DNA of 64,000 nt from Dictyostelium discoideum (taxonomy: Eukaryota): assembly GCA_000004695.1 (NCBI GenBank), contig CM000155.2, forward strand, positions 2,240,001 through 2,304,000. The letters run 5' to 3'. Under the pieces are notes generated by a model. It was not told the origin of the DNA, did not search any database, and worked only from the letters and a program-made list of their open reading frames with translations. The position numbers and the translations under genes are program-made. Of the stretch, positions 40,235 to 42,724 are shown piece by piece. Each line of letters starts with the position of its first letter. Within the stretch, counting starts at the first letter, position 1.

Positions 40235-42724
40235 ATGACACATAACGAAGATAGTTTTAATAATACTAATGATCATCATCATAATAATGACGATAGTTTT
40301 TATTGTAATAGTAGTGATAATAATAATTTAAATAATAAAAATAATTTAAATATTAAAAATAATAATAATAATAATAATAATAATGATAAATTGTTTTTTA
40401 AAATAATAAGAAATAAATATTTATTAAAAACAATTGGATATTGGATTAGAAATCATAATGGTAAAGAAAGAAAGAAATATTATAGATATGATGAAATTGA
40501 TTCAGTTGAATTTCTATTAGAACAAAGTTATATAGAACTATTAAAATATAAATTTAAAAGGAATCATAAAGAATTAAATTTTACAATTGGATCATTTGAA
40601 ATGTTATTTTCAAAATTGGGTGACAAAGATATATCATTAATTGAAGAAATCTATTCAAAATATGGTTTATTAATACATCAATGTAATCATACAACTATAA
40701 TTGAAAATGCAATTAAATTATCTTGTAAAAAATCAAATAATATCAATAGTAATAATAGTAGTAGTAGTAATAATAATAATAATAATAATAATAATAATAA
40801 TAATAATAATAATAATAATAATAATAATAATAATAATAATAATAATAATAATAATAATAATAATAATAATAATAATAATAATAATAATAATAATAATAAT
40901 AATAATAATAATAATAATAATAATAATAATAATAATAATAAAGAATTTTTAGTTATAAAATTTTTATTTAAAAATGGATTTAAATGTCAAATGGATCATT
41001 CATTAGTTCATGTAACTAGTAGTGGTAATTTTAAATTATTGAAATTATTAATTGAAGATTGTGGTTGCATTGTAACATCTAAAAGAGTATTGGATTCAGC
41101 GGTTAGAGATGATAAAGTATCAATTGAAATGTTAAAGTATTTATATGAAACTACAGGATACGTTTGTAGTGGTAATGCAATTAATAGTGTTGCATTATCT
41201 GGTAATTTACAAGTATTAAAATGGTTAACAGAGAATCATCCTGGATTAAGTGGTACATCTAATGGTGTTGATTGGGCAGCACAAAAAGGTCATTTAGATA
41301 TAATCAAATATATTTTTCAAAAGAGAACAGAACAACCATCGAACAGAGCAATTGGATTGGCAGCTAAGAATGGTAGATTCGATATAATCAATTATTTACA
41401 TCAAAGAAATTGTACATCTCATTCACACGCATTAACGGTGGCAGCTAGTGAAGGGAGAATCGAGATATGTAAATTCATATTGGAGAATAGACCAGAAGGA
41501 ATAGAAATGGGTTTATTGACACCAGTCTACAATAATGGCCATTTGGATATTTTAAAATATTTAACTAAAACAATACCATATGTTAAAGTTACACCAGAGG
41601 CAGTATTAAGTGCCTGTATTAGAGGCTATTGTGATATTATAGAGTTTCATCATTATCATAGAAACGAGGCGACTACCACATTTTCAAGTAGTTGTATGGA
41701 TGAAGCATCGAGACATGGTCATTTGGAAATTGTTAAATTCTTACATTTCAATCGTACCGAAGGATGCACTTCGAGAGCGATGGATTACGCATCTGAAAAT
41801 GGTTATTTGGAGATTGTAAAGTTTTTACATAATAATCGTACAGAAGGTTGTAGTTTTAATGCATTGGAAAAGTCGTCAAAGAATGGTCATTTGGAGGTTG
41901 TACAATTTTTAATTGAAAATGGATTTTATAATGAAAATTACATTGGAAATGCAATAGAGTTGACATCATTAAATGGTCATTTACCAATTCTCAAATTATT
42001 AGTATCACATTTTAAAAGTAGATTATCATTTGTAGCTTTAATCAATGCTTGTAAATCAAATCATCTAGATTGTGTTCTCTATTTATTAAATGATGAATTC
42101 TCAGATATCAACATTTTATTCATATCACTTCAAACTTCAATTAAACATAATTCAATCAAAGTTGTAAATCATTTAATCGATTACATTAAAAAACAATTAT
42201 TAAAAGAAAATAAAGATGAAAAACTTCAAAAAGATCTTGAATCAATTTTAAAATACGATTGGATAGTATTAATTACAAATTATCAAAGATTTGAAATTTT
42301 AAAAATATTTGATTCTTTAGATTTTTTAAATATATCAAAATTAAGCTTAAAAGAGTCAATAGAATTTTCAATGATTAATAATGATATTCAAATTTTAAAA
42401 TATTTAACAAATAAATTAAATCAAAATCAAAATAAGAATAATTTATTTTTAAATATAAATAATAATATATTAAAAACAATATTTGAAAAAGGTTATCTTT
42501 TAATTATTAGATTTTTAAATGAACAAATAGGTAATAATAATAGTTATATTGAAACATTTTTAAAAGAATTTGGTGAAAAGAATAATTTATTTATTAGAGG
42601 TTACTTTTCAACATTAATTTATTTATTTCAAAATTTTAATCAACCAATTAAAAAATTAATTGAAAATTGGATTTCTGAATCATGTATAAAAGATTCAAAA
42701 TTAATTGAATATTTTGATAATTAA
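40235..42724 (+). CDS. Ankyrin-repeat protein, 829 aa in a single exon. Its N-terminal region (FFKIIRNKYLLKTIGYWI...YYRYDEIDSVEFLLEQSYIELLKYKF) is related to the N-terminal domain of the downstream paralog family. It contains an uninterrupted Asn tract of about 68 residues.
   Basis: There are multiple roughly 33 aa ANK units (NGHLDIIKYIF, NGRFDIINYLH, HGHLEIVKFLHFNRTEG, NGYLEIVKFLHNNRTEG, NGHLEVVQFLIENG, NGHLPILKLLV). The Asn tract is a pure (AAT)n run at about 40768..40942. Confidence 0.8.
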   Translation: MTHNEDSFNNTNDHHHNNDDSFYCNSSDNNNLNNKNNLNIKNNNNNNNNNDKLFFKIIRNKYLLKTIGYWIRNHNGKERKKYYRYDEIDSVEFLLEQSYIELLKYKFKRNHKELNFTIGSFEMLFSKLGDKDISLIEEIYSKYGLLIHQCNHTTIIENAIKLSCKKSNNINSNNSSSSNNNNNNNNNNNNNNNNNNNNNNNNNNNNNNNNNNNNNNNNNNNNNNNNNNNNNNNNNKEFLVIKFLFKNGFKCQMDHSLVHVTSSGNFKLLKLLIEDCGCIVTSKRVLDSAVRDDKVSIEMLKYLYETTGYVCSGNAINSVALSGNLQVLKWLTENHPGLSGTSNGVDWAAQKGHLDIIKYIFQKRTEQPSNRAIGLAAKNGRFDIINYLHQRNCTSHSHALTVAASEGRIEICKFILENRPEGIEMGLLTPVYNNGHLDILKYLTKTIPYVKVTPEAVLSACIRGYCDIIEFHHYHRNEATTTFSSSCMDEASRHGHLEIVKFLHFNRTEGCTSRAMDYASENGYLEIVKFLHNNRTEGCSFNALEKSSKNGHLEVVQFLIENGFYNENYIGNAIELTSLNGHLPILKLLVSHFKSRLSFVALINACKSNHLDCVLYLLNDEFSDINILFISLQTSIKHNSIKVVNHLIDYIKKQLLKENKDEKLQKDLESILKYDWIVLITNYQRFEILKIFDSLDFLNISKLSLKESIEFSMINNDIQILKYLTNKLNQNQNKNNLFLNINNNILKTIFEKGYLLIIRFLNEQIGNNNSYIETFLKEFGEKNNLFIRGYFSTLIYLFQNFNQPIKKLIENWISESCIKDSKLIEYFDN
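40768..40942 (+). repeat. Coding (AAT)n microsatellite of about 57 uninterrupted AAT codons, within a longer Asn run, inside the ankyrin gene
   Basis: A direct run of aataataat... begins after ...agtagtagtagtaat and ends at ...aataataaagaattttta. Confidence 0.9.

Follow-up and report, generated by a model that had tools for sequence, protein, structure and literature searches.

What is the N-terminal head that an ankyrin-repeat gene of Dictyostelium discoideum appears to share with a nearby array of paralogous genes, and why does it stand in front of bodies that look so different? The question arises in a stretch of 64,000 nucleotides (nt) of D. discoideum AX4 DNA (GenBank assembly GCA_000004695.1, contig CM000155.2, positions 2,240,001 to 2,304,000), hereafter the window, which has a GC content of ~20% and contains poly-N and poly-Q tracts. 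The gene encodes a protein of 829 amino acids (aa), here the ankyrin protein, and the paralog family is a minus-strand tandem array, p46, p49, p52, p55, p58 and p62, at 46.3–63.2 kb of the window. A first-pass annotation of this DNA had taken the head for a mobile, loosely F-box-like module that is fused to different C-terminal bodies. Here, we show that the ankyrin protein and the paralog array share a homologous N-terminal domain of ~100 residues. We favour, with a probability of roughly 0.6, the reading that this head is the conserved N-terminal part of one superfamily of ankyrin-type alpha-solenoid proteins and not a shuffled module.

We first consider homology. A hidden Markov model (HMM) of the first 57 residues of the window paralogs, with the ankyrin protein excluded, finds aa 51–86 of the ankyrin protein with 17.4 bits (E=4e-5 over 178 six-frame window segments), and the top score among the 172 non-family segments is 3.1 bits. 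Over aa 51–110 the ankyrin protein scores 26.7 bits against this paralog-only profile, a value that none of 20,000 composition-preserving shuffles attains (mean 4.8, maximum 21.1 bits), which bears out the proposal that the gene carries the paralog-family N-terminal domain. MAFFT aligns the ankyrin protein with the paralogs over 60 residues with one single-residue gap and invariant positions L3, N10, L13, I17, N25, Y33, L52, L53 and K56. At just 28–32% identity between the modules, recent gene conversion between the ankyrin gene and the array can be set aside. The signal is concentrated in the first ~36 residues. The peptide quoted in the first-pass annotation, FFKIIRNKYLLKTIGYWIRN...YYRYDEIDSVEFLLEQSYIELLKYKF, is encoded at 40394–40555 (+), although the start given there, 40403, lies 9 nt late, in frame. 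The same spacing and residue pattern as in the family, which the annotation had also described, is found across those first ~36 residues, but the second half (YYRYDEIDSVEFLLEQSYIELLKYKF) does not reach significance when it is scored by itself against the window paralogs (0.6 bits, matched by 46% of shuffles).

The wider family was recovered by an exhaustive HMMER search with the module profile against 1.84 billion representative proteins (cut-off E<=1e-3), which returned 34 protein clusters, nearly all of them 650–1100 aa long with the module beginning in the first ~20 residues. Every named source among the members looked up is a dictyostelid (D. discoideum strains, D. firmibasis, D. purpureum, D. 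dimigraforme, Polysphondylium violaceum, Tieghemostelium lacteum and Cavenderia fasciculata), and one member is metagenome-derived. These taxa span the main dictyostelid groups. Two sequence flavours can be told apart, type A, which is like the window paralogs (…YNYYDFPLELIIKTKNQQLLIEKLN), and type B, which is like the ankyrin protein (…YKYDEIxSVEWMIxNxYxxLLKYKLKRG). From alignments A1 and A3 we defined a dictyostelid N-head family, which had no prior name, by a hairpin, a Y-x-Y loop and a helix pair lying N-terminal to an alpha-solenoid of 600–1000 aa, and the ankyrin protein has all of these. A word-index protein search gave no matches with either the ankyrin N-domain or a 31-sequence module alignment and at least seven proteins with a full-length paralog, and exhaustive HMMER alone recovered the family; poly-N words crowding the list of 8000 candidates are a possible cause of the failure. 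A literature search for the head motif found nothing, within the papers it covered, apart from two speculative table entries in PMC9485057, to which we return below.

With relatives of both types added, a type-B-only and a type-A-only module profile match each other in hhalign with 98.2% probability (E=4e-14, 56 columns), so the profile similarity between the ankyrin N-terminus and the family on which the initial proposal depended is found between independent profiles. The match extends over three collinear blocks, namely the hairpin of the first half (E=2.7e-16), the helix pair that follows it (P=6e-4, same register) and a post-module block, in which type A ‘LYKWKELDxELFxxVFxxF’ aligns with type B ‘xFxxxKDxxLFxxLFxxY’ (P=2.2e-4). 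Only this profile-profile comparison supports the second half. Given the three blocks, and with like helix patterns in AlphaFold models, the ~100 aa that the annotation had assigned to the domain are a fair description. The ankyrin gene has the following parts.

40235–42724 (+): ankyrin-repeat gene, 829 aa, single exon, type-B member (open reading frame (ORF); public gene model of equal length)
40235–40384 (+): low-complexity, N/H/D-rich leader, aa 1–50, preceding the module (sequence)
40385–40468 (+): signature helical hairpin DKLFFKIIRNKYLLKTIGYWIRNHNGKE, aa 51–78 (paralog-only HMM, hhalign, AlphaFold2 (AF2))
40469–40564 (+): YxYDEI loop, then a short and a long helix as a pair, aa 91–96 and 100–108 (AF2, hhalign)
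40565–40759 (+): post-module block, aa 111–175, …FEMLFSKLGDKDISLIEEIYSKYG…TIIENAIKLSCKKS (hhalign; AF2 helices aa 118–128 and 133–149)
40760–40948 (+): poly-Asn tract of 63 residues, aa 176–238 (sequence)
40949–42115 (+): array of ~12 short (~28-aa) ankyrin repeats, aa 239–627 (Pfam; repeat alignment with 12 units aligned)

Pfam places this protein firmly among the ankyrin-repeat (ANK) proteins, with Ank_4 at 113.8 bits (E=2.5e-33), Ank_2 at 106.5 bits (E=1.1e-30) and Ank_5 at 76 bits, all far over the gathering cut-offs, and more degenerate ANK units lie near its C-terminus beyond the array. In nearly all relatives the module starts at residues 2–19, and a leader like that of the ankyrin protein is found only in P0029, its nearest relative. 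The post-module block FEMLFSKLGDKDISLIEEIYSKYG…TIIENAIKLSCKKS is collinear with …LYKWKELDFQIFYKIYKIF… of the paralogs. The repeat HMM matches aa 238–249, a flank of the poly-Asn tract, and the two flanks, TIIENAIKLS (block TIIENAIKLSCKKS) and KEFLVIKFLFKNGF, can be read as two helices of one repeat; judged from these flanks, the tract is apparently inserted in the loop of one ANK-like repeat. It would then exemplify a homopolymer insertion tolerated within a repeat loop.

The structure prediction proposed in the first-pass annotation gave a matching helix pattern in both flavours. AF2 was run on aa 45–175 of the ankyrin protein with a type-B alignment (predicted local distance difference test (pLDDT) 77) and on full-length p46 with 29 type-A sequences (pLDDT 72, predicted template modelling score (pTM) 0.59). 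The common order is helix A (LFxxVFR), Asn, helix B (xYLxxxIFxxIxxxN), a Y-x-Y loop of ~10 aa, a short helix and a longer helix, and further helix pairs continue beyond these in both models. In the ankyrin protein helix A spans aa 47–59 and helix B aa 61–78, with the break at the conserved Asn60; in p46 the break falls at the equivalent Asn11. The hairpin comprises ~35 aa in two helices with a near-invariant Asn between them (consensus [DE]xLFxxVF[RK]NxYLxxxIFxxI), and this residue, N10 of the module, is invariant in alignment A1 and almost so in A3.

What follows the hairpin resembles ankyrin repeats. The second half of type B matches a profile of ANK repeats in register (hhalign, P=2.4e-3), the post-module block aligns with a canonical ANK repeat in a type-B self-comparison, and in several type-B proteins the Pfam-recognised repeats begin directly after the head, at ~aa 98–120. 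An off-diagonal type-B self-alignment that reaches the second half of the module has a messy edge and is not used as evidence. The short and longer helices after the loop are probably a first, degenerate ANK-like repeat, and this pair and the post-module block both appear to be degenerate ankyrin-like helix pairs. Hence, the ~35-aa hairpin with its loop is the only part without a known counterpart.

How constant the head is relative to the body can be seen within the array, whose members are the following.

46339–48645 (-): p46, 768 aa, type A; N-module 48466–48642
49490–51847 (-): p49, DDB_G0292950 (P0005); N-module 51632–51811
52229–54955 (-): p52, 908 aa; N-module 54773–54952
55609–57951 (-): p55, identical to DDB_G0292934; N-module 57769–57948
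58560–61019 (-): p58, 819 aa; N-module 60837–61016
62693–63151 (-): p62, 5' part only, broken by an assembly gap that translates to a run of X; N-module 62945–63124

The ORFs compared with the gene models run over 55612–57951 (-) for DDB_G0292934 and 49493–51847 (-) for DDB_G0292950. The DDB_G0292950 model begins at an internal Met of the p49 ORF, and the gene is very weakly expressed, with fewer than 1 read per kilobase per million mapped reads at all stages (PMC5282741). P0009 (863 aa) matches the N-terminal stretch of p62 and may be its intact form.

The modules of p49 and p55 are 75% identical and their bodies 43%. Likewise, the head is practically all that the ankyrin protein has in common with P0029 (48% identity over 69 aa, E=2e-12). 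Among p52, p55 and p58, the ratio of nonsynonymous to synonymous substitution rates (dN/dS) is 0.19–0.33 for the module, a figure resting on 2–4 substitutions per pair of recent duplicates, which tells against leaning on it heavily, and 0.79–0.97 for the body, a range that does not separate relaxed from diversifying selection. The ORFs of these three genes stay intact over 780–908 codons despite the 20% GC genome. On these sequence comparisons, the head is the most conserved part of the proteins and is under purifying selection, with a nearly neutral body, and it is probably functionally important. A constrained head joined to a near-neutral body is what recognition families under diversifying pressure typically show, and the pattern is relevant to the conflict biology of social amoebae.

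A member of this superfamily opens with the family-specific hairpin and the Y-x-Y loop, and we propose that it continues through two degenerate ANK-like helix pairs and passes into the repeat array proper. The conserved Asn at the helix junction may cap a helix, and the hairpin probably caps and nucleates the solenoid. The head probably also offers a docking surface common to the family, and the repeat body would be the variable end, with a variable concave surface that binds diverse targets and with recognisable ANK sequence lost in the window paralogs. A rival account holds that the head is a purely structural N-terminal cap, which seeds folding and protects the first repeat's hydrophobic edge without binding a partner; the finding would then be an ordinary family-specific ANK cap. 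The head always lies at the extreme N-terminus directly ahead of the repeats, ANK-like helix pairs come next after the hairpin, and the conserved positions are mainly hydrophobic (L, F, V, F, Y, L, I, F, I) apart from the Asn at the helix junction, all as expected of a cap. However, ordinary ANK caps are generally no more than degenerate repeats, and the distinct hairpin is kept in all dictyostelid species sampled while the bodies are unalignable, which suggests a constraint beyond capping. A common partner is also hinted at by the co-immunoprecipitation (co-IP) of two members with Skp1, described next. We therefore regard the cap-only explanation as unlikely, although it survives better than the other alternatives.

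The second alternative is that the head is a highly divergent true F-box, which binds Skp1 directly by the canonical three-helix interface, so that the proteins are substrate receptors of Skp1–cullin–F-box (SCF) ligases with ANK-type recognition domains. A conserved N-terminal helical element of ~40–60 aa followed by a variable repeat body is the layout of F-box proteins, and degeneracy is a known trait of Dictyostelium F-boxes (PMC9485057). Two module proteins, moreover, turn up in the Skp1 interactome. We scored all 73 strings of the F-box/Skp1-interactor table of PMC9485057 with the module profiles. DDB_G0268782 (MDKLFQSVFNNIYISRLIYSIL…) reaches 24.2 bits with the hairpin profile (E=8e-8) and DDB_G0294633, an ankyrin protein (…LFSKILSNF…RKYKDIISLEWMIN), 27.0 bits with the type-B profile (E=1e-8); the FNIP protein DDB_G0293774 has a weak hairpin-like string in the correct register (WRNEIILNKLIFHT…YKYKSY, 7 bits). 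All three were scored as loop-trimmed strings derived from the supplement by optical character recognition. DDB_G0268782 and DDB_G0294633 are high-confidence Skp1 co-IP proteins of the vegetative and slug stages, respectively, and were aligned to the F-box consensus by the authors as ‘more speculative’ cases (PMC9485057).

The sequence of the head nevertheless shows no detectable relationship to the F-box, and the loose resemblance noted in the first-pass annotation fell away in the profile-profile comparison that it had proposed (hhalign probability 0.2–0.5%). A Dictyostelium F-box HMM, built from 33 sequences copied from Fig. S3 of PMC9485057, gives the modules -0.0 to 0.9 bits, which is shuffle-like, and true F-boxes 38–66 bits, and the reverse search of the F-boxes with the module profile reaches at most 5.5 bits. 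No Pfam family matches any of five N-modules at E<=10, and the F-box residues LPxE and V-CKxW are absent from the head motif. The predicted head elements (helices of ~9–13 and 17 aa, a ~12-aa loop, and helices of ~6 and 9–14 aa; AF2) also differ from the F-box pattern of roughly 11, 8 and 10 aa, which is a comparison of lengths with a generally known pattern and not of structures. Finally, the DDB_G02929xx window paralogs, DDB_G0270810 and DDB_G0293782 are missing from the interactor table of PMC9485057. Taken together, we find a true F-box rather improbable. A BC-box/SOCS-like reading of Y-L-x-x-x-I-x-x-x-I was also dropped, by reasoning only: the BC-box consensus needs a small residue (C/S/A) at +4, where the head has Ile.

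The adaptor idea is nonetheless indirectly backed by experiment, despite the lack of F-box homology, because two module proteins are in the Skp1 co-IPs. Skp1/SCF is hence the leading candidate partner of the head, though unproven, and a direct contact would be made via a surface other than a recognisable F-box. Two points count against a close tie to Skp1: the co-IPs of module proteins may be indirect, and 2 module proteins among 92 Skp1 interactors (PMC9485057) is a modest enrichment only. A bolder extension, which we consider doubtful, is that the head is a new non-F-box element docking to Skp1 or another cullin ligase and defines dictyostelid-specific SCF substrate receptors with near-neutrally diversifying ANK-derived bodies. 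If this docking reading were true, it would reveal a lineage-specific and quickly evolving ubiquitin-targeting repertoire, possibly for self/non-self or pathogen conflicts.

The third alternative is the model of the first-pass annotation itself, a mobile module fused to unrelated bodies, ankyrin in one gene and another fold in the paralogs. It draws on the difficulty of relating the bodies by sequence. The window paralogs contain no Pfam domain, with no Ank match for p46 to p58; the paralogs score no more than 3.5 bits with an HMM derived from the repeats of the ankyrin protein itself (best shuffle 1.9), which is nothing convincing; and self profile-profile alignment finds no internal periodicity in type A. 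Several further results weigh against our preferred superfamily reading. Type-A and type-B bodies do not match significantly in hhalign (P=0.011) and a body-only HMM is negative on type-B bodies, so that we claim no sequence homology between them. A strict type-A profile matches an ANK profile weakly and at a single site (P=0.006; reversed control 0.41), the sequence matches of the paralog bodies to the Protein Data Bank (PDB) are weak (E=0.36 and 1), and Foldseek of the p46 model against the PDB returns only generic solenoids. The AF2 model of a paralog body is of medium confidence, and the alignment behind it included one member with a clear ANK signal and two with weak ones. DDB_G0268782, with its clear hairpin, is annotated ‘LRR+’ (LRR, leucine-rich repeat) by the authors of PMC9485057, and if that label is right, at least its hairpin occurs on a non-ANK body; DDB_G0293774, with its 7-bit string, is classed there as FNIP/LRR.

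Against a mobile module stands, to begin with, the extent of the homology, which runs through the first ANK-like units for ~100 aa and thus beyond a 40-aa motif, and members are of similar length with the module always N-terminal. The p46 body model superposes locally on ANK proteins, and models of the paralog bodies are alpha-solenoids in which some segments look ANK-like, which does not support the claim of different C-terminal bodies. Ank is the sole Pfam family that recurs among module proteins of both types, and its detection is patchy even in type B, with none in 4 of 8 members scanned singly (P0026, whose cluster includes DDB_G0270810, P0029, P0032 and P0033). Type-A modules are in turn found with genuine ANK repeats: P0020 has a type-A module plus repeats passing the Ank_2, Ank_3 and Ank_4 Pfam thresholds, and P0019 and P0034 show a weaker signal than P0020. 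P0019 provides the connection to the window, since its body is homologous to the window paralog bodies (65.6 bits, E=1e-19, two tandem copies) and its ANK-like unit LKSAAKNGYQEMVEYILENHFS falls inside the homologous region, where it appears equivalent to LISVANENHQEILNYLFENY of p46. This protein, D. purpureum DICPUDRAFT_153981 (1100 aa), consists of one head followed by two tandem type-A bodies, each with an ANK-like unit LKS[AT]…GY.EM…IL.N. From the recurrence of Ank, the patchiness in type B, P0020 and P0019 we read the array as a divergent ANK-type family and not as a graft onto another fold. The bodies of the paralogs and that of the ankyrin protein probably do not differ in kind, and we regard the mobile module as rather unlikely.

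The last alternative attributes the resemblance to the extreme, K/N/I/L/F/Y-rich composition of Dictyostelium proteins. The low genomic GC content and the insignificant second half might point to it, but it is effectively refuted by the window scan, the shuffles and the profile-profile match reported above.

The superfamily reading invites comparison with known systems. Like other ankyrin-repeat proteins (Pfam clan Ank) and their caps, the ankyrin protein has ~12 bona fide repeats, and an ANK-like helix-turn-helix register persists in the module's second half and in the block after it. It differs in the LFxxVFRNxYLxxxIFxxI hairpin of the head, which has no Pfam match, and the paralog bodies differ in having neither Pfam-detectable ANK nor internal periodicity. 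ASB proteins (with a SOCS box) and poxvirus ANK/PRANC proteins likewise combine a constant adaptor element with a variable ANK array in expanded, fast-evolving families. The logic is alike, but their boxes are C-terminal with a defined Elongin- or Skp1-binding motif, whereas the element here is N-terminal and its partner only a candidate. In F-box plus ankyrin proteins, such as Legionella AnkB, a short conserved N-terminal helical element also precedes a variable ANK array, and two proteins with the present head co-purify with Skp1; Dictyostelium F-box/ankyrin proteins listed in PMC9485057 are DDB_G0285411, DDB_G0290983, DDB_G0272020 and DDB_G0276013. The Dictyostelium FNIP/FGxxFN families (PMC9525666) are similarly large, lineage-specific and fast-evolving dictyostelid repeat families, but their repeat is an LRR and not ANK, and the weak hairpin-like string of DDB_G0293774 belongs to one Skp1 interactor among them.

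Delimiting the head bounds an unannotated domain and links to the ankyrin-repeat world several dozen dictyostelid ‘hypothetical proteins’, among them the entire array of the window. It also explains two odd entries in the Skp1 interactome, DDB_G0268782 and DDB_G0294633, because both carry the head and not an F-box. The question of cryptic non-canonical Skp1-binding modules in protists is now testable on a defined fragment of 60–100 aa.

Elsewhere in the window, another ORF adjoins the p62 fragment at 63391–63969 (-). Two long ORFs with monotonous low-complexity translations are most likely not genes: 53658–54122 (+) is antisense to the (TP)n tract of p52, and 25610–26197 (+) is another frame of a Cys-rich gene at 24676–26712. 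Upstream of the ankyrin gene, two neighbouring ORFs at 37184–39014 (-) encode a His-rich N-terminus with arrestin and FYVE domains, and the public model for this interval is a 580-aa protein with Arrestin_N, Arrestin_C and FYVE, which we take to resemble an AdcA-type arrestin-domain protein.

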